Shown here: positions 979-38,810 of the stretch, in pieces
Numbering within the stretch: the first letter of the stretch is position 1
Layout: the number at the start of each line of letters is the position of its first letter
NCBI GenBank assembly: GCA_016207115.1
Contig: JACQQI010000026.1
Span: forward strand, 1-61,188
Direction of reading: 5' to 3'
From: Candidatus Nealsonbacteria bacterium
GTDB lineage: Bacteria > Patescibacteriota > Minisyncoccia > Minisyncoccales > GWA2-46-15
Length of the DNA: 61,188 nt
Translations under genes and position numbers: made by a program
The notes under the pieces: generated by a model
What the model saw: only the letters and a program-made list of their open reading frames with translations
Database searches by the model: none
What the model was told of the DNA's origin: nothing

Positions 979-2046
979 TTAATTCTGGTAACTGATTTTC
1001 CTTTTTGTTTCCGAAAGGTGTTTGATATTAACCCAGATGAGCTGGATTTTTTTGTTTTTGGCCAGACGAACCAGGACCGAACGCATTTTCTGTACCCATT
1101 CGATGGCCACGACGTTGCCCGGCTTCAGCATTTTCTCCAGACCTAAATCCAACAGCTCCTCCCCTTTTTCTAACCGCCAGGTATCGAGGTGATAGAAAAT
1201 TCTTTGTTTAAAAGGGTATTCTCGAATGATGGTAAAAGTCGGGGAGACGACATTGTCTCGTATTCCCAATGCTTTAGCCAAACCCTTGGCAAATTGTGTC
1301 TTGCCCGAACCCAGTTCTCCCTGCAGGGCAAAAACTAAGCATTTTGATTTGAGCATTTTTTCGTGTTCCTTGGAAATCTTCTGGGCGATTTCCTGCGTCT
1401 TCTCTTCTGATTCGGAGATAAAGGTATTTCTAGAACTCGCTTTGATCTTTATCTCCCCCTGGCGCAAAATCCGGGGCTCATTTAGAGTCGTATCCACCAC
1501 GGTGGAAGGCGAATTGTAGAGCAACTGGCCCGCGTCCAAAAACAGGTCAATTAAAGCCAAACGCTTTTGGGTGGTGTATTTTAAGACATCTTTCAGGCAA
1601 TAGGGTGTCTTTTTGCCTGAGGTATTGGCCGAGGTGGAAGTAATGGGTTTACCAAATCTCCTAATAATTTTCAGAGCCAGAGGATAATCAGGAATTCTAA
1701 TGCCTAACGTTTCTTTTCCCGCCTGCAAAACGGGGTCGGTTCTAGCTTTACTTTTAGAAACCACGGTCAGAGGTCCCGGCAGAAACTTTTGGTAAAGATT
1801 TCGGGCGGTTTCGTTGATTTCAACATATCTCTCGGCCATCTTTCTGTCCGAGACCGCCACAGAAACTGCTTTGCCGCCCCGGCTGCCCTTAAACTCTAAA
1901 AGTTTTTTGACCGCTTCAGTGTTGGTCGCGTCCGCGCCCAAGCCGTAACAAGTCTCGGTCGGATAAATGACCAAACCGCCATCCTTCAGGATGGCCACGG
2001 CTTTTTCAACGGCTCTCTTTTGATCTCTGGTTTTGACTATTTCCAT
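979..2046 (-). CDS. Fusion of YrdC/Sua5-type TsaC domain (N-terminal) with TsaE P-loop domain (C-terminal)
   Basis: 355-aa ORF. The N-terminal half has VIYPTETCYGLGADA, ITSTSAN and STVVD (YrdC fold). The C-terminal half has LQGELGSGKTQFAKGLAKALGI, SPTFTII, HLDTWRL and AIEW (TsaE/YjeE motifs). It sits directly upstream of tsaD. Confidence 0.8.
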   Translation of the reverse strand: MEIVKTRDQKRAVEKAVAILKDGGLVIYPTETCYGLGADATNTEAVKKLLEFKGSRGGKAVSVAVSDRKMAERYVEINETARNLYQKFLPGPLTVVSKSKARTDPVLQAGKETLGIRIPDYPLALKIIRRFGKPITSTSANTSGKKTPYCLKDVLKYTTQKRLALIDLFLDAGQLLYNSPSTVVDTTLNEPRILRQGEIKIKASSRNTFISESEEKTQEIAQKISKEHEKMLKSKCLVFALQGELGSGKTQFAKGLAKALGIRDNVVSPTFTIIREYPFKQRIFYHLDTWRLEKGEELLDLGLEKMLKPGNVVAIEWVQKMRSVLVRLAKNKKIQLIWVNIKHLSETKRKISYQN

Positions 2047-7988: not shown

Positions 7989-8831
7989 TTAGATTTTGAA
8001 TAATCGGCGGGCATTTTCCGTCGTTATTCGGGCAACCTCTTCATAGCTCACTCCCTTTATTTTGGCAATCTCTTCGACGACAAAACGAACAAAGACGGGT
8101 TCGTTCCTCTCTCGGTCCGCTCGAGGCGGAGTTAAATAAGGAGCATCCGTTTCCACGAGTGTTTTTTCTAAAGGCGCGGCCTTAATTATCTCTGGCCAAT
8201 CAATTCCCGGAATCTGCCGGAAAATAATTCCGGTGAAACCGAGATATAGTCCTAAGCCCAGATATTCCTTCGCCTGCTCAACCGTTCCGGTAAAGCAGTG
8301 GATGACGCCACCCGACTCATGGCGGGGCTGACTTTTCAGGGTCTCAATCAGATCCGAGTGAGCCGAACGGCAATGGAAAATGATCGGCCGATTTAATTCC
8401 GCGGCCAAGCCCATTTGCTCTCCCAGGGCTTTTTTCTGTAAAGACTGAAACTCTTCCAGTCGGGCCTTGGTTTTGGGTTTGTAGTAATAATCCAGGCCGA
8501 TTTCGCCGATGGCCACCACTCTTTGCGAGCTCCGGGCCAATTTGCGATAATCTTCAATATTAAACTCTCCCAGTCTTTCCTGGCCAATCAACTCTTCCGG
8601 ATCCAGCTTGTTTTTCATTAAATGACCCGTAACGTGAATTGGGTGTAGGCCGATCGCAGCAAAAACGCCTTGAGGATATTTTTCGGCCAGCTCAACTGTT
8701 CTTCGGCTCGTTGCTAACTGCGAACCGACGTTGACGACCCAGACGTCATTATCCAAGCAACGCCGAATAATCTCGTCGGCGTCATTTTGGAAAGCCTGAA
8801 AGTTCAAATGAGCGTGGGTATCAATCAGCAT
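7989..8831 (-). CDS. TatD-family metal-dependent hydrolase/DNase
   Basis: 280 aa. MLIDTHAHLNF, GEIGLDYY, IFHCR and ETDAPYL motifs. The start ATG lies inside repeat copy A. Confidence 0.85.
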   Translation of the reverse strand: MLIDTHAHLNFQAFQNDADEIIRRCLDNDVWVVNVGSQLATSRRTVELAEKYPQGVFAAIGLHPIHVTGHLMKNKLDPEELIGQERLGEFNIEDYRKLARSSQRVVAIGEIGLDYYYKPKTKARLEEFQSLQKKALGEQMGLAAELNRPIIFHCRSAHSDLIETLKSQPRHESGGVIHCFTGTVEQAKEYLGLGLYLGFTGIIFRQIPGIDWPEIIKAAPLEKTLVETDAPYLTPPRADRERNEPVFVRFVVEEIAKIKGVSYEEVARITTENARRLFKI

Positions 8832-8874: not shown

Positions 8875-9789
8875 TTAAGAGTTGTTTAAAAGAATCCGAG
8901 AGCGCCAGAAAGCGACCCCGACCAAAAAGAAAGTGACTAGGGTGGGCAGGTAATCCGGCAGATTCAGGCCCAAGCTCTCGACAATCATGAAAATTCCCAG
9001 AAAACCGATCGAAGTCATGGCGCCATTCTTTAAAAATCTGTATTGGGCTACCCTATCGATCCCTTTGATGGTCAATTCTCTGACCACCAGAGCGCCCAGG
9101 CCGTTGCCGATCAAGATTAAAGGCAGAGAGGTGGTAAAAGCAAAGGCGCCGACGACGCCGTCCAAGCTGAAAGAAGTGTCGAGGACTTCCAGATACATTA
9201 ATTTGGAAAAATCCGACAGATGCGTGTCGCCCGTCAGCAGTTTTTGTTCTTGTTTTTGCGCCTGTTCCCGAAAGCCATAGAGAATGAAAAACAGGGCGTT
9301 GCCGATGGCCGCCGACAGCATCAGCAGGGGCGTGCCGCGGGCGATGTATAAAAGGCCAACGAGCAAAAGCGCGGCAAAAGCGAAAAACCAAATGCCGAAA
9401 TCGGCCGAGATCAGCCGGTCGGGCACAAAGAAGGGTGTCTTTTCCTCCAAGAACAACCAGTGCAGATACAAGAGCAGCAGGAACACGCCGGCGGCGATCA
9501 GGATTAGTCCCTTTCTCGCTTCCAAAAGATCGGCCACGTGAGGGTCGGAAGAAAAGAACATCTGGAAAACACCGCTCAAGCCGATCTCGGGCGCCGAAAG
9601 CCAAACAATGATCATGGGAAAAATTCCCCGGACGATAAAGACGGCCGTGAATATTCCCCAGACCAGAAAAATCTTGCGCCATCTCAAACTCATCGTCTTT
9701 AAGACGTGGGCGTTGACGATGGCATTGTCGATCGAATTGACCGTCTCGAAAACGACCAAACCCAGGATGACGATCAGAAAACTGAACAT
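8875..9789 (-). CDS. Integral membrane protein, DUF475 (TerC-related) family
   Basis: 304 aa with multiple TM segments. N-terminal ETVNSIDNAIVNAHVL resembles the DUF475 signature. A TACAAT box lies 6 nt upstream of the ATG, suggesting a leaderless mRNA. Confidence 0.55.
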   Translation of the reverse strand: MFSFLIVILGLVVFETVNSIDNAIVNAHVLKTMSLRWRKIFLVWGIFTAVFIVRGIFPMIIVWLSAPEIGLSGVFQMFFSSDPHVADLLEARKGLILIAAGVFLLLLYLHWLFLEEKTPFFVPDRLISADFGIWFFAFAALLLVGLLYIARGTPLLMLSAAIGNALFFILYGFREQAQKQEQKLLTGDTHLSDFSKLMYLEVLDTSFSLDGVVGAFAFTTSLPLILIGNGLGALVVRELTIKGIDRVAQYRFLKNGAMTSIGFLGIFMIVESLGLNLPDYLPTLVTFFLVGVAFWRSRILLNNS

Positions 9790-9827
9790 TTTAAAATTGT
9801 AGCGAAATCAAGGAAATTAATAAAGAG

Positions 9828-9863
9828 AAGAAGGCGCCCCGGTAATTTCTCGAGACGCCTTCT
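9828..9863 (-). terminator. Hairpin terminator after micro-ORF 1
   Basis: Minus strand reads AGAAGGCG-19 nt-CGCCTTCT followed by TCTCTTTATTAATTT. Confidence 0.5.
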
Positions 9864-9868
9864 GACCG

Positions 9869-9913
9869 CTAGTACCAAAAAGTACAGCGGCCACGGAAGG
9901 ACCAACGGATCAT
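9869..9913 (-). CDS. Micro-ORF 1, 14 aa: MIRWSFRGRCTFWY
   Basis: Hand translation; too short for the ORF track. AGAAAGGAGG lies 8 nt upstream of the ATG. It is paralogous to micro-ORFs 2 and 3, with only synonymous changes in the 7 core codons. Confidence 0.55.
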   Translation of the reverse strand: MIRWSFRGRCTFWY

Positions 9914-10080
9914 CAGCCACTCCTCCTTTCTAAAGAACTAAACTGGCCTTTTGAAAGACCAGTTTGAGAAAGTCGAAGTGATTCTAAGCAACCATTACCT
10001 CAACGCGCCAAAACTGGCCCCTAGAGTCCAGAGGTAATAGTAGTAATATCTAATTTTAATCATCTTGACCCTCATGAAAA
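9914..10080 (-). promoter_or_regulatory. Promoter plus structured leader of micro-ORF 1 (candidate riboswitch/attenuator)
   Basis: -35 TTTTCA (10080..10075), 16-nt spacer, -10 TAAAAT (10058..10053). P1 stem ATTACCTC/GAGGTAAT (10038..10031 with 10001..9994). CTTCGACTTTCT anti-SD. Hairpin AAACTGGTC/GGCCAGTTT (9965..9940). SD at 9930..9921. Confidence 0.5.
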
Positions 10081-10085
10081 TGGGT

Positions 10086-10121
10086 GGAGAGAGCGCCGAC
10101 GATCGACGCAACGCTCTCTCC
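10086..10121 (-). terminator. Hairpin terminator after micro-ORF 2
   Basis: 10-bp stem GGAGAGAGCG/CGCTCTCTCC with a 16-nt loop, followed by ACCCATTTTCA. Confidence 0.5.
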
Positions 10122-10130
10122 GTTTCGCCG

Positions 10131-10175
10131 CTACCCGAAGATATAGGTGCAGCGGCCCTTGTTGGACCAACGCAT
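10131..10175 (-). CDS. Micro-ORF 2, 14 aa: MRWSNKGRCTYIFG
   Basis: Hand translation. AGAAAGGAGG lies upstream with an 8-nt spacer. Paralog of micro-ORFs 1 and 3. Confidence 0.55.
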   Translation of the reverse strand: MRWSNKGRCTYIFG

Positions 10176-10376
10176 TGTTGGATCCTCCTTTCTTCTAACC
10201 CCAGAACGAAAAAACCGGCTTCAGGGGCCAGTTTCAGGAAGTCGAAGTTAAGAAATTCTCTCGCTTTAACTACCTAAAACTAGTCCCGGCCGATGAGCCT
10301 GGTAGCTAAAGTAAAAGAATTTCCTGGTCGACTGATTCATATACAGACATCATAACGCTATTTTTCCTAGTGTCAA
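10176..10376 (-). promoter_or_regulatory. Promoter plus structured leader of micro-ORF 2
   Basis: -35 TTGACA (10376..10371), 16-nt spacer, -10 TATGAT (10354..10349). P1 stem TTAGCTACC/GGTAGTTAA (10309..10266). Intrinsic terminator AAACTGGC-7 nt-GCCGGTTT plus TTTTTT (10234..10209) sits just before the SD. Confidence 0.55.
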
Positions 10377-10389
10377 GGAGGCTGAAGGA

Positions 10390-10419
10390 AAGGGGGCTCG
10401 GCATCTGCCAAGTCCCCTT
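10390..10419 (-). terminator. Hairpin after micro-ORF 3
   Basis: AAGGGGaCTTGGC-aga-GCCGAGcCCCCTT stem. The U-tract is weak (TTTCCTTC). The -35 of unit 2 follows immediately. Confidence 0.4.
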
Positions 10420-10425
10420 CTGGCG

Positions 10426-10473
10426 TCATAGCCATCGCCAGGTGCAACGGCCCCGGTATGACCAACGAACCAT
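10426..10473 (-). CDS. Micro-ORF 3, 15 aa: MVRWSYRGRCTWRWL
   Basis: Hand translation. AGAAAGGAGG lies 6 nt upstream of the ATG. Paralog of micro-ORFs 1 and 2. Confidence 0.55.
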   Translation of the reverse strand: MVRWSYRGRCTWRWL

Positions 10474-10708
10474 TGGCCTCCTCCTTTCTACTCCCAAATG
10501 AGGAGCAGGGAACTAAAAAACTGGCCCTCAAAAGGCCAGTTCTAGAAAGTTGAAGGAAGTAAGTTATTATCTCAACGCGCCAAAACTAGTCTCTGAAGAG
10601 TAAAGAGATAATAGTTGCCACCAGGCTGACATCGGTTTTGACAATTCTTGATTCATGGTTGACGAGGAGACTCTGTATTCATCATAAGCGCGAGCCGGCT
10701 TTTGTCAA
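10474..10708 (-). promoter_or_regulatory. Promoter plus structured leader of micro-ORF 3
   Basis: -35 TTGACA (10708..10703, 2 nt after the ROK stop), 16-nt spacer, -10 TATGAT (10686..10681). P1 stem TATTATCTC/GAGATAATA (10613..10565). Terminator AACTGGCC-7 nt-GGCCAGTT plus TTTT (10541..10515). Confidence 0.55.
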
Positions 10709-10709
10709 A

Positions 10710-11582
10710 TCAGGACAGAAGCGCGCCCAAACAGGCGGCGTGATCGATCGAAGAAGTAACGGCGTCTTGGAACTGGAAAAAACCAATGGTCTCTCTCCGA
10801 TAAATTTCCAGGGCTTGAGGTAAAAACAGGTCGGCGGATTCCTTCAAAGAACCGTTGAGAATAATCCTCTGGGGGTTGTAAAAATAGCTGACTTCGGCCA
10901 AAAACCGGGCTAAGTGACTGATAAAAATATCGATCGTCTTCCGGGCGATTGGATCTTCCTTTGAAACTGAAAAAATCTGTTGGGCCGTCAATTCCTTCTG
11001 GGCCAGCTCCCGATAAATATTGCTGACGCCCTTGCCGGAAAGGAAATCGTCGATCTTGAAAGATTTATAATTAAGCTCTGGAACAATCTCCTCTTTCTGT
11101 GAAATCTCGCCGGCGTTGTTGGTGAAGCCCGGAATCAGCTTCCCCCCAACCACGTAGCTGAGGCGCAGACCCGTGCCCAAATTAATTAGAAGAAAGCTCT
11201 GGCAATCCCGGCCCTGTCCGAATCGACTTTCCGCCAGAGCCATGGCGTTGACGTCGTTTTCGAGAGAAACGCCCAGGCCAAACTCTTTTGAGAATTCTTG
11301 GACCAGCGGGTATTCTGTCGGGCCACCCAAAAGAGAGCTGTGAGTGATGACTCCGTCTTTGACGATACAGTTGAAACTTACCCCCAGCCGGTCGATGCCC
11401 GGCGTTAGGTTGTCGGCGATCATCTTCTTGATCGACCGGAGGAACTCCGGGCTGCCCGCAGGAAAGTCCGAAGTGGCTATCTTATTGCTGGAAAGAAGGC
11501 GATAGTTTCCGTCGAATTTGCAAACTTCAATTTTGGTTCCGCCGACATCCAGAGACAAAAACTTGGCCGGAGGACTAGTCAT
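10710..11582 (-). CDS. ROK-family sugar kinase/regulator-like protein
   Basis: FLSLDVGGTKIEV ATP-binding motif, NDVNAMALAE and LINLGTGL. Start set at ATG 11582 (MTSPPAKF). That ATG overlaps the upstream stop in ATGACTAG, implying translational coupling. Confidence 0.7.
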   Translation of the reverse strand: MTSPPAKFLSLDVGGTKIEVCKFDGNYRLLSSNKIATSDFPAGSPEFLRSIKKMIADNLTPGIDRLGVSFNCIVKDGVITHSSLLGGPTEYPLVQEFSKEFGLGVSLENDVNAMALAESRFGQGRDCQSFLLINLGTGLRLSYVVGGKLIPGFTNNAGEISQKEEIVPELNYKSFKIDDFLSGKGVSNIYRELAQKELTAQQIFSVSKEDPIARKTIDIFISHLARFLAEVSYFYNPQRIILNGSLKESADLFLPQALEIYRRETIGFFQFQDAVTSSIDHAACLGALLS

Positions 11583-12708
11583 GGGCGATGTAATAGAATG
11601 GCTTATTCTCTCGATCTTGATCGAAGTAGACCAAGGTATAGTCGAGAGGACGACGCTTGATATCAATCAGATATTCGATCAGAAAAAGGTTCTTTTTCGG
11701 GTAACAGACGGGAACGCCATGATAGGGTAAGCGGATACATTCTTTATTGACCGGGATAATGCCCAAGCGGTTGGGCTTGGGTGAGACGGTCAAGGGTAAG
11801 GCGTGGGGCACGGCTCTGGCTAAATAATCAATGTCATCGCGCACTTTGAGGTAGGCGTGGTATTGGAAGATCGATTCGTGAGCCCGACTTTTGATGTCGC
11901 GGCGAATCTCTCTGGCTTCGGCCGATATTTCTTCGTCTTTGAGGCCTTCGTTGTAGACGTCTAAAAGCAGGCTTTCATCGTAACCCTTGGTCGAAACGAT
12001 GCGCAGCACCGATTCAAAAGTGCCCTGGTATTTTTTCAAAAACTCCGGATCTTGTTGTCGGTAAAGTTTTTTGAACTCTAAGGTCCTTTGTCGGTGGCGC
12101 TCGATAAAATCAGGCACGGTCTTTTCCATTTCGGACAGATCAACAATCTTTAAGGCGGGAGAGAAGGCTAGCCATTTGTTCAGAGCCTCCAAAAACTCGC
12201 GGTAGGCAATCCAGTCTGGTCGCGGCACGCCGGTAAACTGACCAAAAGCGCCCTCCGTGAAAATTGTCACCGTGGCTCCCGGCGGATAAATGTCTTTGAT
12301 GATATCGATGACGGTTTTCAATCTCGCCAGAGACAAAACTTCGCCTAGATCGGGTAAAACACGGTTGGTTTTTAAGGGTACGGGGATCTTGAAGGGAAAC
12401 CCCAGGATCGTCAGCTGGATCGGTTGGCTTTGATTGATGAAATAATTGAGTTTTTCGATCCAGAGGTTTTGATTCTCTTCGATGTATTCGGCGGGGCCGA
12501 AGCGGTAATTTTCGTCTTGGAAGATTGAAAGGATTTTTTCTGCCGTCGTCCCTCCTTCGATCCGGGGCCGGGAAACCGGAATTCGGTCGATGATCTCCTT
12601 TAGCTCTGCGATGGTGATGTTTTTCTGGTCGACAAAATTCTGACGGATGTTTTTATTCGCCAAGTTCTCAAAAGGGGTGTAGGGATAAACGTAAGGATTG
12701 GGCTTCAT
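11575..12708 (-). CDS. DIT1/PvcA (isocyanide synthase / pyoverdine-dityrosine biosynthesis) family-like protein
   Basis: 377 aa. From memory of PvcA: ILGFPFKIPVPLKTNRVLPDLGEVLSL..IYPPGATVTIFTEGAFG parallels LPAFPGKSPNP.KVLG..PD.AE...YPPGA.I...SDG.VF. C-terminal LTVSPKPNRLGI...LPYHGVPV parallels RLSIHPQ..KFGI..TPWHGVAV. The start overlaps the HAD stop (ATGA). Confidence 0.55.
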   Translation of the reverse strand: MKPNPYVYPYTPFENLANKNIRQNFVDQKNITIAELKEIIDRIPVSRPRIEGGTTAEKILSIFQDENYRFGPAEYIEENQNLWIEKLNYFINQSQPIQLTILGFPFKIPVPLKTNRVLPDLGEVLSLARLKTVIDIIKDIYPPGATVTIFTEGAFGQFTGVPRPDWIAYREFLEALNKWLAFSPALKIVDLSEMEKTVPDFIERHRQRTLEFKKLYRQQDPEFLKKYQGTFESVLRIVSTKGYDESLLLDVYNEGLKDEEISAEAREIRRDIKSRAHESIFQYHAYLKVRDDIDYLARAVPHALPLTVSPKPNRLGIIPVNKECIRLPYHGVPVCYPKKNLFLIEYLIDIKRRPLDYTLVYFDQDRENKPFYYIAHD

Positions 12709-13487
12709 ACTCTAAAAAATTGCTCTAAATTATCGACTATCATGTTAGCACGTTTTTTGAGCTCGTGAGAACGGTGACCGACTAAAACTTTCAGGCCAAA
12801 GCCTTTTTCAAAGAGGCTCTGGTCATTGTCGTCGTTACCGAAAATAGCCACCTGGCTGGCTTTTATCTTCAGCCTACGGCAGACAAAGTTGACGGCTTTT
12901 GCCTTGCTCACTCCCCGGCCGACGAAATTCAGAGTATCGTCGTTGTAAAGAGCGTTGGCGGCTCGGGGCGGAATCAATCTCGCTTTTGTTTTTATAAAGA
13001 TCAGTGACGGCTTCTCCAATTCGGCTCTGAGAAAGAATTCTTCTCTTGAAGAGATGAAGTTTTTGTGGATATTCGGATAACTCTTCTTTAGTTCTTTTTC
13101 AAAACGTTCATTGGCGGCGATAAAAACTCCTTTATTATCCGTCTGCCAGAAGCCGATGAACCCGACTTGTCTGCTCTTTTGCTCAACAAAATTTCTGGTC
13201 AGAACGATTTCTTCCCCTTTTAACCTCCGCAGAAAAATATTGTTCTTTTGGTAGGTGACAATAGCGCTCCCGTCGAGAATGATTAAAGGCGCATTAAATC
13301 GAATGGGCCTCGTGCCTTCGATCATCGTTTCGAAGCCGCGCCCCGTGGCCACGGTGCAAAAAACTCCCCTTTTTTGAAGGTTAATGATCGCCCGGCTCAC
13401 CCCGGCAGAAATGGGTTTACCCTTTTCTTTCAGGGTACCGTCGATATCAAAAACGCAAAGACGGATGTTTTTAAAATTATCGGTCAT
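12705..13487 (-). CDS. HAD-superfamily hydrolase, Cof-type (IIB) phosphatase
   Basis: 260 aa. CVFDIDGTL (motif I DxDGT), TGR (motif II) and GNDDND (motif IV). Confidence 0.75.
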   Translation of the reverse strand: MTDNFKNIRLCVFDIDGTLKEKGKPISAGVSRAIINLQKRGVFCTVATGRGFETMIEGTRPIRFNAPLIILDGSAIVTYQKNNIFLRRLKGEEIVLTRNFVEQKSRQVGFIGFWQTDNKGVFIAANERFEKELKKSYPNIHKNFISSREEFFLRAELEKPSLIFIKTKARLIPPRAANALYNDDTLNFVGRGVSKAKAVNFVCRRLKIKASQVAIFGNDDNDQSLFEKGFGLKVLVGHRSHELKKRANMIVDNLEQFFRV

Positions 13488-13512
13488 GATTTAACATAAC
13501 TGTCTGAAATTC

Positions 13513-13542
13513 AAAAGGCTGCCGCGCGCGGCGACAGCCTTT
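13513..13542 (-). terminator. Intrinsic terminator after the 533-aa gene
   Basis: Minus strand reads AAAGGCTGtcGCCGCG-cg-CGGCAGCCTTTTGAATTT. Confidence 0.65.
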
Positions 13543-13569
13543 CTACTAGCAGTGGCTTCCTCCTAGCCG

Positions 13570-15171
13570 CTACTTTGTGTAGTAAAAAACGTAATCGGGT
13601 CCGGCGAACCCGAAGTCTCGCGGTGAAACACGAACTGGTATGACGCCCGGGTGCTCGTTCGCCACACGACACTCGGGTACGATGTGCATCTTATGCCCGC
13701 CGTCCTGACTCCGGTAGACGACCGGCATCCCGTGGTTCAGGAGCGCGTTGGCCGTGACGTCGAAGACGATCCTGGCAACTTTATCGGTGATGCACGCATC
13801 GATAAAATTCTGTAGACCGGTCAGCTTGACGAACATACCCGCCTTTTTACGGTAGGCGAGATGTTGCGCGATGACCAGAGCCTTGGTCTCGGCCTCCCGC
13901 CACAACTCTTCTCCGATCAACCGACGGAGCGCGGCGTAGTCGCGATCGCGGTTGACATAGAGGTCAGCCATGGCGTCCACGCTGACCATAGCCGGCAGGC
14001 TGCAGGCAATGGCGTAGGTCTGGTCAAAGTCCACCCTGACCGAGATGGCTTCGACTTCTTGCCATGGAAAGAGATCCGACTTCAACTCTTTCACCTCCAC
14101 TGGCGCCTCGAGTTCTTTGAAGAGCCGACGGGAGATGGTCAGCATCTGATTCACCCCCTGGGGATCGACTCCCATCAGCGAAGCGAAGAGCGTTGCCTCG
14201 TCAAAGATCACGATTCGGAGACCGGGCTTGTAGATCGTTCTGACCTTCTCCTGCAGCAAGCGGAAGAAGAAAGCCAGATAGACCCAGCCGAGCGTCGGCA
14301 AGGAAACGATCTCGCGGAACTTCAGCGGGTTCGGGATCCGTGTGCCCAGGGCGAAGGACAGGGTGATCGGCACGGGCTGGCCGCGGCGAACGTAATCACC
14401 GATGACGCCAGTCAAACGCGCCGCTTCTGCCTTGGGCATTTCCACTTCCTCGCTGTGAGTCAGGAGAATTTGGAGAATGCCGTCCGGTACACTACCCTTT
14501 GGTGACTTGTAGCCGCTCATTCTCGTGGCCAGCAATGAGTGATAGAAAGCCAGTTCTCTAGCGAGAGTCGTTTTGCCGTCCGCCATGTCGGGCAGGGTAA
14601 TTCCCGGGCCTTTCGTGACCATAGTCACGCCCTTGGGTGCCTTGGCGGCTTTGTCGAGAATGCCGGTAAGGTCCGCGTGAAACCGTTGATTCGCACAGGG
14701 GACTCGCACTGGCAACTCTGTGCCGTCCACGGTGATCACCGCGGCTTCTTCCCTTATCCTTACCTCGATCAGGTGTCGGAAAAGATGAGGGCGCCGTGGC
14801 AACTTGTCCGAGACGAACACCTTTGCCCTTTCGATGCCCGGCGTCAGACTGACACAGCCATCCGGGTCGTAGACCCAACTGCTCTGGCTGAATAGTCCGA
14901 CCACCGCCTCTGGCTTCAAGCCCGATCCGTTCTTTTCGTCACCCTTCGGTTCACGGCAATGCAGATCCAGCTGTTGCAAGACGTCTGAGGCGAACCCGGT
15001 CGGTAGCACAAAAACCGTCTCGGTAAGTCGGTGACCATCGAAGGCTTTTGCCGAACCAACGTCCACCAGCCCGATCCAGAAGTCGTCTGCTTCCAATAAC
15101 TCTAATGCCACCTCGGTAGCATCGCCGCTCTCTGGAAGCCGAGAAGCGGCTACGTCCAACAGGATGTCCAT
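13570..15171 (-). CDS. Hypothetical protein; unknown N-terminal ~250 aa plus C-terminal DIT1/PvcA-like domain
   Basis: 533 aa. PITLSFALGTRIPNPLKF..LPTLGW...IYKPGLRIVIFDEATLFA and LLNHGMPVV...YVFYYTK align by eye with the 377-aa paralog (ILGFPFKIPVPLK..LPDLGE..IYPPGATVTIFTEGAFG; LPYHGVPV...PFYYIAHD). The region is visibly more GC-rich than its flanks and carries long antisense ORFs. Confidence 0.5.
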   Translation of the reverse strand: MDILLDVAASRLPESGDATEVALELLEADDFWIGLVDVGSAKAFDGHRLTETVFVLPTGFASDVLQQLDLHCREPKGDEKNGSGLKPEAVVGLFSQSSWVYDPDGCVSLTPGIERAKVFVSDKLPRRPHLFRHLIEVRIREEAAVITVDGTELPVRVPCANQRFHADLTGILDKAAKAPKGVTMVTKGPGITLPDMADGKTTLARELAFYHSLLATRMSGYKSPKGSVPDGILQILLTHSEEVEMPKAEAARLTGVIGDYVRRGQPVPITLSFALGTRIPNPLKFREIVSLPTLGWVYLAFFFRLLQEKVRTIYKPGLRIVIFDEATLFASLMGVDPQGVNQMLTISRRLFKELEAPVEVKELKSDLFPWQEVEAISVRVDFDQTYAIACSLPAMVSVDAMADLYVNRDRDYAALRRLIGEELWREAETKALVIAQHLAYRKKAGMFVKLTGLQNFIDACITDKVARIVFDVTANALLNHGMPVVYRSQDGGHKMHIVPECRVANEHPGVIPVRVSPRDFGFAGPDYVFYYTK

Positions 15172-15374
15172 CGCTCAGTCCTTTCTTGAGACTAGTGTCT
15201 TTGCCTCCGAACCGGCAAAGTCAATCAATCATTCTCGGCGCCGGTTCGGCGGCGCCAGATTCGTGCATAGGCACACCTCCATATGTGCGTTTTTTGGATT
15301 TTCAACGAACTGACCCAGGCTTCTGACCTGGGGCTGGCCACCGATCTCGACGGCCAACGTCCAAGTCAGGAGAC

Positions 15375-15407
15375 GAAAAACCTCCTGGTTTTGGGCCAGG
15401 AGGTTTA
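15375..15407 (-). terminator. Intrinsic terminator downstream of metG and a small ORF
   Basis: Minus strand reads AAACCTCCTGG-cccaaa-CCAGGAGGTTT followed by a T-run (TTTCG). Confidence 0.7.
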
Positions 15408-15429
15408 GGTTCGAGAAGATTCCTTAAGG

Positions 15430-15567
15430 TTAATCTATTTTGCGATTCTCTAAACCGGCTGGCCCTAAGCTAAAGATAATGACAAAAAGGACGCTAATAA
15501 GCATCCAGCCGAGATAAAGGTTGTTGAGACTGAAAACGCTATTCAGTTGGGGCAAAGCCAGATTCAT
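15430..15567 (-). CDS. Possible 45-aa small membrane protein
   Basis: Hand translation: MNLALPQLNSVFSLNNLYLGWMLISVLFVIIFSLGPAGLENRKID, with one predicted TM segment. It lies between the metG stop and the first terminator. No clear SD. Confidence 0.3.
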   Translation of the reverse strand: MNLALPQLNSVFSLNNLYLGWMLISVLFVIIFSLGPAGLENRKID

Positions 15568-15644
15568 GATGGTATCTAACAATTAACCACGACCCAGAAC
15601 ATAAGTCAAGCTTTTTTCTCGCTTCGCTCGAAATTAGTCAAGGG

Positions 15645-29483: not shown

Positions 29484-29803
29484 GGGGGCGAAAAGCTTCG
29501 ACAGAAATCGACCCCAAGAAAGGCAAGCCGAGTCGTCAGACCTCGTTAAAGCTGACACAGATAAATGCTAATTTATCTTCACAACCGGCTTTGGCTGTAG
29601 CTTAAAGCCGCGCCGACCCTAAGGATTCTCGATAATTAAGGTCGGTGTCATGGATCGAGAAAAGTGTTCTTTTTTTTGGCGCAAGCCAAGATTGGCGGGA
29701 AGACGAGCCTAACTGTCCTTCCCGCTTCAAAGAAAATTAGGCTAAGCTTGTAGTCTTTCTCTGGGAAAAATTTCTGGATCCGGGTGCAATCTCGGCGCCT
29801 CCA
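29484..29803 (+). ncRNA. ssrA: tmRNA (SsrA); predicted tag ANLSSQPALAVA
   Basis: The 5' GGGGGCGAAAAGCTTCGAC pairs with the 3' CGCCTCC-A (G3:U pair as in tRNA-Ala). T-arm-like GGATCCGGGTGCAATCTCGG. Tag reading frame GCT AAT TTA TCT TCA CAA CCG GCT TTG GCT GTA GCT TAA at 29577..29615. CCA is not encoded. Confidence 0.85.
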
Positions 29804-29828
29804 CTTCTAGTTTAAAAACTATCGAAAA

Positions 29829-38729: not shown

Positions 38730-38738
38730 TACTTTAAG

Positions 38739-38810
38739 TGTCCCCACGAGGATTCGAACCTCGATCTCGACCTCCGGAGGGTCGCGCCTTATCCATTAGG
38801 CAATGGGGAC
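38739..38810 (-). tRNA. tRNA-Arg (anticodon CCG)
   Basis: Hand-folded cloverleaf of GTCCCCA TT GCCT AATGGATA AGGC G CGACC CTCCGGA GGTCG AGAT CGAGG TTCGAAT CCTCG TGGGGAC A. CCA is not encoded. Confidence 0.9.

Follow-up and report, generated by a model that had tools for sequence, protein, structure and literature searches.

The stretch of DNA analysed here as a whole, referred to as the window, is a contig of 61,188 nucleotides (JACQQI010000026.1, assembly GCA_016207115.1) from a metagenome-assembled genome (MAG) of Candidatus Nealsonbacteria. It contains a module of four genes on the minus strand at 10710-15171, coding for a protein of 533 amino acids (aa; P533), a HAD phosphatase, a PvcA-like protein of 377 aa, and a ROK kinase, and an array of micro-genes lies on its 3' side. 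All coordinates are given in window numbering and refer to the minus strand unless noted otherwise. The last three genes of the module are translationally coupled. At the junction GT-ATGA-AG (12708..12705), the ATG of the PvcA-like gene (11575..12708; start codon at 12708..12706) overlaps the TGA of the HAD gene (12705..13487; stop codon at 12707..12705), and at the junction CCC-ATGACTAG-TCC (11582..11575), the start of the ROK gene (10710..11582; ATG at 11582..11580) overlaps the end of the PvcA-like gene, whose stop codon TAG lies at 11577..11575. Both overlaps, ATGA and ATGACTAG, proved to be exactly those given in an earlier note on this DNA (the original prediction), and all coordinates were verified on the minus strand. 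Translation of the ROK gene from the ATG at 11582 yields a protein of 290 aa, which was also obtained when genes were called independently on a second assembly of the locus, and the start codons of the PvcA-like and ROK genes are further backed by the conserved N-termini of their homologues. The assignment of the three genes to one operon, as originally proposed, is borne out by the overlapping junctions, and Pfam matches were obtained for all three families. A tight junction between the PvcA-like and ROK genes, with anything between a 4-nt overlap and a 9-nt gap, is also present in unrelated lineages and is therefore not a matter of chance.

The PvcA-like protein matched PF05141 over residues 88-335 with 75.1 bits (gathering cut-off 26.4; E 8e-21). 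Its AlphaFold (AF2) model, built from a 34-sequence alignment, reached a predicted local distance difference test score (pLDDT) of 92, and the top matches of this model in Foldseek were PIsnA (9DH4, Tyr-bound; 9DHM, product-bound) and PvcA (3E59) with E-values of 1e-16 to 1e-13 and template modelling (TM) scores of 0.64-0.74; the Rossmann folds of tyrosyl-tRNA synthetase and cyclodipeptide synthases ranked far lower. The Pfam match and the predicted-fold comparison with PvcA/IsnA thus agree in placing the protein in the DIT1/PvcA superfamily, as the original prediction had done. In a profile comparison of the PvcA-like family with PIsnA/PvcA, residues ~40-200 aligned strongly (E 1e-20) and the C-terminal half barely; the conserved N-terminal core motifs read FP.K.P...K...PD..E.L.L...Y.PGA.I......G.FG. 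The SIHP segment of PvcA had been placed at TVSPKP, and the alignment, made with PvcA alone, indeed pairs LSIHPQP of PvcA with LTVSPKP of the window protein. PWHG of PvcA aligns to PYHG, so that the HG motif is kept. Throughout the branch, which comprises orthologues from the candidate phyla radiation (CPR) and from alphaproteobacteria, HPQ is replaced by an invariant S-P-[KR]..R, and the invariant motifs common to both groups, which are spread over the full length, are ILGFPFK.PVPLKT.R..D.GE, E152, VSP[KR]..R.G, and LPYHG.

Three marks of an isonitrile synthase are missing. The score against the NCBIfam equivalog NF045653 (L-Tyr/L-Trp isonitrile synthase; EC 4.1.99.24/25) was 43 bits vs. a cut-off of 600, the C-terminal segment LSIHPQP is not present in the 377-aa protein, and no adjacent Fe(II)/2-oxoglutarate oxygenase is encoded: TauD/2OG-oxygenase families were missing both from the 26 window open reading frames (ORFs) scanned, which agrees with the absence of PvcB/IsnB pointed out originally, and from all Pfam-annotated related loci. 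Because of the equivalog score, the protein is, judged from its sequence, a member of the superfamily but not a demonstrable isonitrile synthase. Within the DIT1/PvcA superfamily, it falls into a separate branch of orthologues that is still uncharacterised. This branch is rather small and scattered: the family profile matched 132 representatives at E <= 1e-30 in a sequence library with clustering at 50% identity. These genes bear the database label 'L-tyrosine/L-tryptophan isonitrile synthase family protein', which must not be taken as evidence of their function.

Directly upstream of the HAD gene lies P533 (13570..15171), which had been overlooked and codes for a second paralogue with the fold of PvcA/IsnA, termed isocyanide synthase (ICS) fold in the following. 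It gave no Pfam match; the core motif was detected by pairwise BLASTP, and hhalign of the P533 family (A2) against the PvcA-like family (A1) yielded a probability of 98% (E 1.4e-13, 288 columns). The P533 profile directly matched the sequences of PIsnA (9dhm/9dh4, E 5e-5) and PvcA. The top Foldseek matches of its AF2 model were again 9dhm, 9dh4, and 3e59 (E 1e-11, TM 0.63-0.69); the confident part of the model is made up of the C-terminal 340 residues, the ICS-like core corresponding to about residues 190-533. P533 keeps the Lys, Glu, K..R, and HG positions, and the acid pair PD..E is replaced by PT..W; therefore, it may be a specialised or non-catalytic partner. Between P533 and the HAD gene, a GC-rich hairpin followed by UUUUGAAUUU is located at 13513..13543 (minimum free energy -21.3 kcal/mol, z -3.7), which is a candidate partial terminator or processing site. 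No sigma-70-like promoter was seen between this hairpin and the HAD gene, and a similar hairpin with a T-run is present 3' of the P533-like gene in two related loci (L010 and L027).

The HAD protein (260 aa, of the Cof-type HAD-IIB group) matched PF08282 at 4e-29 (102 bits vs. a cut-off of 20.9) and TIGR01484 (HAD-SF-IIB) with 54.5 bits (cut-off 41.8), stayed below the cut-off of the narrower family TIGR00099 (Cof; 92.7 vs. 137), and contains the nucleophile motif DxDGT in the form FDIDGTL. The ROK protein matched PF00480 at 7e-34 (118 bits vs. a cut-off of 22.9) and stayed far below the cut-offs of all NCBIfam equivalogs. In an alignment of 11 members of its subfamily, DxGGTK, NDV, and GTG are kept; the window protein reads LDVGGTK and ENDVNA at the first two positions, which we take to be the N-terminal DxGxT motif and the catalytic Asp motif, respectively. 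The subfamily shows AGEISQ where AGE.GH is expected, and the zinc motif CxCGxxGC was not found in any of the 11 aligned members, the window protein reading AGEISQKEEIVPELNYKSF... without His or Cys. The GH...CxCGxxGC zinc-binding motif is a defining feature of ROK proteins and shapes the sugar site.

Gene neighbourhood in related loci

We compared 25 non-redundant loci, 19 of which come from species-representative genomes obtained by a pattern-limited scan of 185,579 genomes; the remaining ones are contigs of individual homologues. In 16 of the 25 loci, the PvcA-like gene is immediately followed by the ROK gene, which in one other locus lies close by. The number of loci in which a second ICS-fold gene adjoins the PvcA-like gene is also 16, and a gene of an unknown family takes this position in four others. 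A HAD gene was present in 7/25 and an M20 peptidase gene in 6/25 loci, and in some loci an M20 or M28 peptidase is joined to the module; genes for a glycosyltransferase, NDK, or a nucleotidyl-transferase are close by in some. The conservation of this neighbourhood upholds the earlier proposal that kinase and phosphatase are genuine functional partners of the PvcA-like protein. The lineages carrying the module include CPR3, WWE3, Moranbacteria, Woesebacteria, Gottesmanbacteria, and Paceibacterota, and nearly all of the source-named entries among the 120 closest homologues listed belong to CPR/Patescibacteria. Far from being unexpected in CPR genomes, as had been assumed, the module is therefore typical of them. 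The closest relatives, L021 and L022 (69% and 67% identity), contain P533-like and PvcA-like genes without HAD and ROK genes.

An orthologous branch occurs in the alphaproteobacteria Consotaella, Tropicimonas, Sinorhizobium medicae, Microvirga, and Devosia. All four loci compared (L018, L019, L024, L025) show the gene order DctP-DctQ-DctM-PvcA-like-ROK, i.e., the genes follow those of a tripartite ATP-independent periplasmic (TRAP) importer; three of them have another PvcA-like gene after ROK (it appears to be absent from L024), and a divergent AraC regulator was recorded in two (L024 and L025). This arrangement is the layout of an inducible uptake-and-utilisation operon. We tried to derive the imported ligand of the TRAP system from solved binding proteins and gave this up, as the closest of these was too distant (E 1e-39). 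In the S. medicae locus (L024, 4066-6004), a 341-aa SIS-domain protein is encoded beside the AraC gene of the TRAP-PvcA-like-ROK operon; in size and domain type, this protein corresponds to fructosamine-6-phosphate deglycases or GlmS-like isomerases.

Some loci depart from the common layout. In four of them, P533 is replaced directly upstream of the PvcA-like gene by fam5, an unknown family of 416-743 aa (L006, 6682-7989; L008, 2699-4930; L014, 6691-7941; L020, 5598-6971). Comparison of fam5 with the ICS fold by hhalign gave probabilities of 5.7% and 46%, and no Pfam or PDB match was obtained; there are weak hints of an ICS-like core and a ...MHG... motif. In L020, a short ORF with the aromatic cluster NYFVF and a hairpin precede the fam5 gene. 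A variant cluster in another Patescibacteria MAG (L028, 1-7134) starts with genes for a pyridoxal phosphate-dependent (aromatic-type) decarboxylase, HAD, and ROK, which are followed by those for two low-molecular-weight phosphatase/ArsC-like proteins, a 401-aa PvcA-like protein, a CofD/YvcK-like protein, and a 377-aa PvcA-like protein. Five loci carry the record titles 'uncultured Gammaproteobacteria' (L006, L011, L014, L016) or 'Promethearchaeota archaeon' (L017) despite their CPR-type gene content. Their PvcA-like proteins are 37-48% identical to that of the window, and these titles of unrelated phyla are probably binning or labelling errors.

Micro-gene units and aromatic leader-peptide attenuators

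Three micro-gene units lie 3' of the ROK gene (9869-10708), each consisting of a conserved leader, a hairpin with a U-run, a strong Shine-Dalgarno (SD) sequence, and an ORF of 14-15 aa. The promoters of units 3 and 2 read TTGACA-16-TATGAT and agree with the consensus at 11/12 positions, that of unit 1 being weak (9/12). The promoter-like site of unit 3 (10708..10681) starts one base past the ROK stop codon, in agreement with its original placement near the end of the ROK gene. It is followed by the leader peptide MNQELSKPMSAWWQLLSLYSSETSFGALR (10567..10656), which contains tandem Trp codons (WW), ends with a stop codon inside attenuator region 1, and shares its C-terminal SFGALR-stop with the leaders of unit 1 and of L021b. 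The attenuator of unit 3 occupies 10517..10600, regions 1 and 2 forming an antiterminator and the 3' part of region 2 forming a terminator with region 3. The terminator hairpin (10543..10517; -17.9 kcal/mol) is followed by U6, and micro-ORF 3, coding for MVRWSYRGRCTWRWL, lies at 10426..10473 behind the strong SD sequence AAAGGAGGAG. Unit 2 (10131..10376) comprises a promoter at 10376..10349, the leader MNQSTRKFFYFSYQAHRPGLVLGS (10340..10266), a hairpin at 10235..10211, and the micro-ORF for MRWSNKGRCTYIFG (10175..10131); its antiterminator has a stability of -22.9 kcal/mol (z -4.0), and its aromatic run FFYFSY has a p-value of ~0.001. In unit 1 (9869..10075), the leader MRVKMIKIRYYYYYLWTLGASFGALR (10075..9995) and a hairpin at 9965..9940 precede the micro-ORF for MIRWSFRGRCTFWY (9913..9869); the antiterminator reaches -24.5 kcal/mol (z -3.1), and the aromatic run YYYYY was reached by none of 20000 simulated peptides.

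The RNAalifold consensus shows a 23-bp antiterminator formed by region 1 with region 2. Because region 2 also holds the 5' arm of the terminator, the antiterminator and terminator are mutually exclusive. In 8 of 10 copies, the stability of the antiterminator was significant (z <= -3.1). What had been called the 'leaders' of the micro-genes thus are three-region transcription attenuators with aromatic leader peptides, which by analogy would respond to amino-acid supply. The box TTGAG(A/G)TAAT, which we also considered as an extended -10 promoter, was rejected in this role; it holds the stop codon of the leader ORF and belongs to region 1. Searches of Rfam returned no leader, riboswitch, or sRNA family, either for the whole window at the gathering threshold or for 9700-10800 at E <= 5. 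These attenuators also change the picture of transcription behind the operon. The statement in the original prediction that no terminator follows the ROK gene holds for the first few bases and fails beyond them, as the hairpin and U6 of unit 3 precede micro-ORF 3. Because this terminator is met before the micro-ORF, the suggested read-through from ROK into the peptide array is unlikely, the micro-ORFs being preceded by their own promoter and attenuator-terminator. We therefore dropped read-through as the link between operon and micro-genes in favour of the shared attenuator type.

The evidence for this link comes from relatives. A covariance model (R1), built from five micro-gene units, gave 106 bits for the unit 3 attenuator. 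Outside its training set, an attenuator was detected directly upstream of the operon of the P533 homologue and the PvcA-like gene in L021 (65 bits, E 5e-14), L005 (E 3e-5), L022 (E 0.01), and, weakly, L007; the PvcA-like proteins of these four lineages are 48-69% identical to that of the window. The three-region architecture is kept in L022 and L007 with changed helix sequences. L022 contains another copy of the attenuator before a 255-aa gene and an M28-like peptidase gene adjoining the PvcA-like gene, and in L011 such a leader precedes genes for a phosphoenolpyruvate (PEP)-mutase-family enzyme and a class I/II aminotransferase, which are followed by P533-like and PvcA-like genes. Every copy of the attenuator contains a short ORF with aromatic codons, whose stop codon lies in or near region 1; examples of the aromatic stretches are RYYYYYLW, KFFYFSY, AWW, KFFYFNYFY, AYYYYYP, SFWFYYPF, YSFYFFSFWF, AFFFSFYYFF, and NYYYYFF. 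Phe, Trp, and Tyr together account for 22.7% of the residues in 15 leader ORFs vs. 9.6% in the window proteins, and 9 of the 15 leaders contain aromatic runs with p <= 0.003. The link between the operon and the micro-genes is therefore a shared type of aromatic-codon attenuator, which in relatives heads the ICS-fold operon itself.

The micro-peptides (14-27 aa) contain Arg, Trp, and Cys, share the conserved core RW[ST].[RK]GRCT, and have a Trp/Tyr/Phe content of 21-36%. Synonymous third-base differences between the units, as they stand in the DNA (TCA/TCC, CGT/CGC, TGC/TGT, ACC/ACT), argue that the micro-ORFs are translated. Two further units are present at the syntenic position in L021. The motif W[ST]..G[RK]C was confined to the window and L021 among the ~25 enzyme-bearing loci (L022 was read directly), a motif scan of the 19 genome loci giving no match. 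Two metagenome pattern scans yielded 0 and 118 further candidates, and we discarded all 118, as they look like chance out-of-frame matches in GC-rich DNA. The L021 units lie at 8030-8405 and 11160-11880, and one of them also encodes a 44-aa membrane peptide before the micro-ORF. The P505 gene of L021 is apparently preceded by two tandem attenuators, the second of which was recognised by eye (MKKIATAKFWFYSYFLTLAGGNLLTVR, a hairpin, and T7).

The window (15300-15582) and L021 (7530-7760) also share a non-coding arrangement downstream of the gene for methionyl-tRNA synthetase. It consists of a small ORF (MNLALPQ...GPAGLENRKID in the window) and a hairpin with a T-run (CCTCCTGGCCCAAAACCAGGAGGTTTTT), after which follows the conserved stretch GGAC(G/A)TTGGCCGTCGAG...GGCCA... 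with a stem-loop, and it may represent a second attenuator, of a non-aromatic type, or a small RNA. At the Rfam gathering threshold, a transfer-messenger RNA gene (96.6 bits) at 29484-29806 on the plus strand and tRNA-Arg(CCG) at 38738-38810 on the minus strand were the only RNA families detected in the window. At 979-2046 (minus strand), a single ORF of 355 aa combines a Sua5/YciO/YrdC (TsaC-type) domain with a TsaE domain and would represent a fused pair of proteins for the N6-threonylcarbamoyladenosine (t6A) modification of tRNA.

Possible function of the module

We favour the reading, with a probability of about 0.45, that the module is an enzyme system acting on the C-N bond between aromatic amino acids and sugar phosphates, probably in salvage, which is induced by aromatic shortage and serves the supply of these amino acids, not their consumption. 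Leader-peptide attenuators classically activate genes at a low supply of the cognate amino acid. By analogy, a lack of charged Phe-, Tyr-, or Trp-tRNA would stall the ribosome in the leader, region 1 would then pair with region 2, the terminator would be prevented, and the downstream genes would be transcribed. Induction under aromatic shortage would, by the same analogy, argue against a pathway consuming Tyr or Trp and suggest a role in their supply, and the aminotransferase gene of L011 and the M28-like peptidase gene of L022, which are also preceded by attenuators, fit such a role. The ROK kinase would phosphorylate the sugar part of the substrate, the ICS-fold pair would break (or, less likely, make) the C-N bond between the aromatic amino acid and the sugar phosphate, using the site of the family for an amino acid and a ketose phosphate, and the HAD phosphatase would then remove the phosphate from a product. 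In the known isonitrile reaction, the amino nitrogen of Tyr or Trp becomes linked to a ribulose-5-phosphate carbon (PMC7949033). The two-substrate site of the family, taken together with the kinase, the TRAP importer of the alphaproteobacteria with an AraC regulator in two loci, and the peptidase and aminotransferase neighbours, favours C-N cleavage and, with less likelihood, C-N formation. We infer that the module is not a canonical isonitrile gene cluster and that the micro-peptides are co-regulated neighbours of the operon and not demonstrated substrates of its enzymes.

Several points weigh against this salvage system. Direct control of the ICS-fold operon by an aromatic attenuator was seen in relatives alone; the window's own P533 and HAD genes have no clear aromatic attenuator upstream (model score 5 bits), and P533 is preceded only by a divergent three-region element with a non-aromatic leader. 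The ROK and HAD genes are absent from the closest relatives and are therefore not obligatory, and no transporter adjoins the CPR loci. A HAD phosphatase fits biosynthesis of the 'synthase plus phosphatase' type better than salvage, it would be odd to induce aromatic-rich micro-peptides during aromatic shortage, and the logic of attenuation is borrowed from the trp, phe, and his leaders of other bacteria. A wider version of the same idea, which we put forward as a speculation that is rather doubtful in its entirety, would see a Phe/Tyr/Trp-starvation regulon in many CPR bacteria, these being unable to synthesise aromatic amino acids. It would be controlled by an undescribed three-region attenuator; its core would be a non-isonitrile paralogue pair with a zinc-less ROK kinase and a phosphatase, releasing aromatic amino acids from sugar-phosphate conjugates or assembling them from these, and the Arg/Trp-rich micro-peptides of 14-27 aa would be co-induced effectors.

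The module might instead perform sugar/amine chemistry apart from aromatic supply, such as making a precursor of the cell envelope or of a compatible solute by kinase, condensation, and phosphatase steps, with attenuators and micro-genes as mere syntenic neighbours. A kinase together with a phosphatase is typical of biosynthesis by an 'X-phosphate synthase/phosphatase' pair, the glycosyltransferase, NDK, and nucleotidyl-transferase genes close to the module in some loci point in the same direction, and so do the lack of a clear aromatic attenuator before the window's P533 and the confinement of the micro-ORF motif to the window and one syntenic relative. However, the attenuator lies directly before the ICS-fold operon in at least four lineages at 48-69% identity, the structure being kept in L022 and L007, and aromatic amino acids are bound by all those members of the superfamily that have been characterised. 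We consider this explanation an unlikely one.

Less probable still is the view that the 377-aa protein truly works as an isonitrile (or N-formyl) synthase with free Tyr or Trp as its substrate. The ROK kinase would then supply the ketose-phosphate carbon donor and the HAD phosphatase would clear phosphorylated by-products, the product being a small bioactive isonitrile and possibly a weapon or signal in nutrient shortage. The PvcA/IsnA fold, the strongly conserved N-terminal core motif, and the retained HG motif are in line with such a function, as is the coupling of the amino nitrogen of Tyr/Trp with a ribulose-5-phosphate carbon in the known reaction (PMC7949033), and the aromatic-linked regulation shows that the system deals with Phe, Tyr, and Trp. 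Against this stand the equivalog score of 43 bits vs. 600, the divergent C-terminal half with the invariant SP[KR]..R in place of HPQ, and the absence of a PvcB/IsnB-type oxygenase from the ~25 loci. Moreover, canonical enzymes obtain their ribulose-5-phosphate from central metabolism and do not require a kinase of their own or a further paralogue, the alphaproteobacterial genes lie behind a TRAP importer, with AraC in 2/4 loci, and switching genes on at amino-acid scarcity would make little sense for a consuming pathway. Finally, tailoring of the micro-peptides (M.RWS..GRCT...) at their N-terminus or aromatic residues by the ICS-fold enzymes, in the manner of ribosomally synthesised and post-translationally modified peptides, is very improbable: the peptides adjoin the operon in the window and in L021, are rich in Trp, Tyr, and Phe (21-36%), and in L021 are preceded by the same type of regulatory element as the operon, but their motif is missing from the other 23 of 25 PvcA-like loci, so that precursor and tailoring enzyme do not co-occur across genomes, they have no leader region for enzyme recognition at 14-27 aa, promoter and terminator are separate for each of them, the known substrates of ICS enzymes are free amino acids, and the metagenome scans produced no convincing further copies.

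Comparison with known systems

In the literature searched, we located no paper that links PF05141 with Patescibacteria or describes either the pairing with a ROK kinase and a paralogue or the attenuator. There is a fair chance that the module stands for new chemistry and the attenuator for a new class of regulatory RNA in CPR bacteria. The DIT1/PvcA superfamily has one well-characterised reaction, the formation of isonitriles from Tyr or Trp, and the ill-defined reaction of Dit1, and a separate, conserved branch accompanied by a paralogue and a sugar kinase suggests C-N chemistry, so far unexplored, that would involve amino acids and sugar phosphates. The attenuator would be the first candidate of the leader-peptide type in the CPR, as far as the searched literature shows, and it offers a candidate and testable means by which auxotrophic, host-dependent CPR cells might sense and answer a shortage of aromatic amino acids.

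The window protein shares with PvcA, IsnA, and PIsnA (PF05141; 3E59, 9DH4, 9DHM) the fold, the N-terminal core, and the HG motifs, and it scores above the Pfam cut-off. It differs from them by an identity of only ~20%, ~60 extra residues, and the change of SIHPQ to VSP[KR]..R. Its branch is mostly accompanied by another ICS-fold paralogue and by a ROK kinase, a PvcB/IsnB oxygenase never being present, and it has aromatic leader-peptide attenuators, which were seen before the operon in relatives. Yeast Dit1, a member of the same Pfam family, makes N-formyl-tyrosine for the spore wall (PMC7345447); because this product is no isonitrile, the chemistry of the family is not fixed. In contrast to the system described here, Dit1 is eukaryotic and works with the P450 enzyme Dit2, without a kinase, phosphatase, or paralogue as partner.

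In its anatomy, the attenuator resembles the ribosome-mediated leaders of trp, pheA, and his. Like these and the leaders of pheST and leu (Rfam families Trp, Phe, His, Leu, and Thr), it combines a short ORF, in which codons for the amino acid concerned stand in tandem, with a downstream antiterminator and terminator that exclude each other. Unlike the classical attenuators, it has three regions instead of four, so that the default without translation would be read-through. It also differs in its CPR host, in the lack of any Rfam match, and in the genes downstream, which are micro-ORFs of 14-27 aa and the ICS-fold operon and no aromatic biosynthesis pathway.

A functional analogy, and nothing closer, exists with the frlABCD system of E. 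coli, in which fructosamines (Amadori products) are imported and phosphorylated by a kinase, and a 6-phosphate deglycase cleaves the C-N bond to release an amino acid and a sugar phosphate. An importer is likewise combined with a kinase in the alphaproteobacterial operons, with an AraC regulator in two of the loci and a neighbouring SIS-domain protein in one. The enzymes themselves differ, as frl uses a PfkB kinase and a SIS deglycase and the operons described here code for a ROK kinase and ICS-fold proteins, and the CPR loci carry in addition a phosphatase that is absent from frl.

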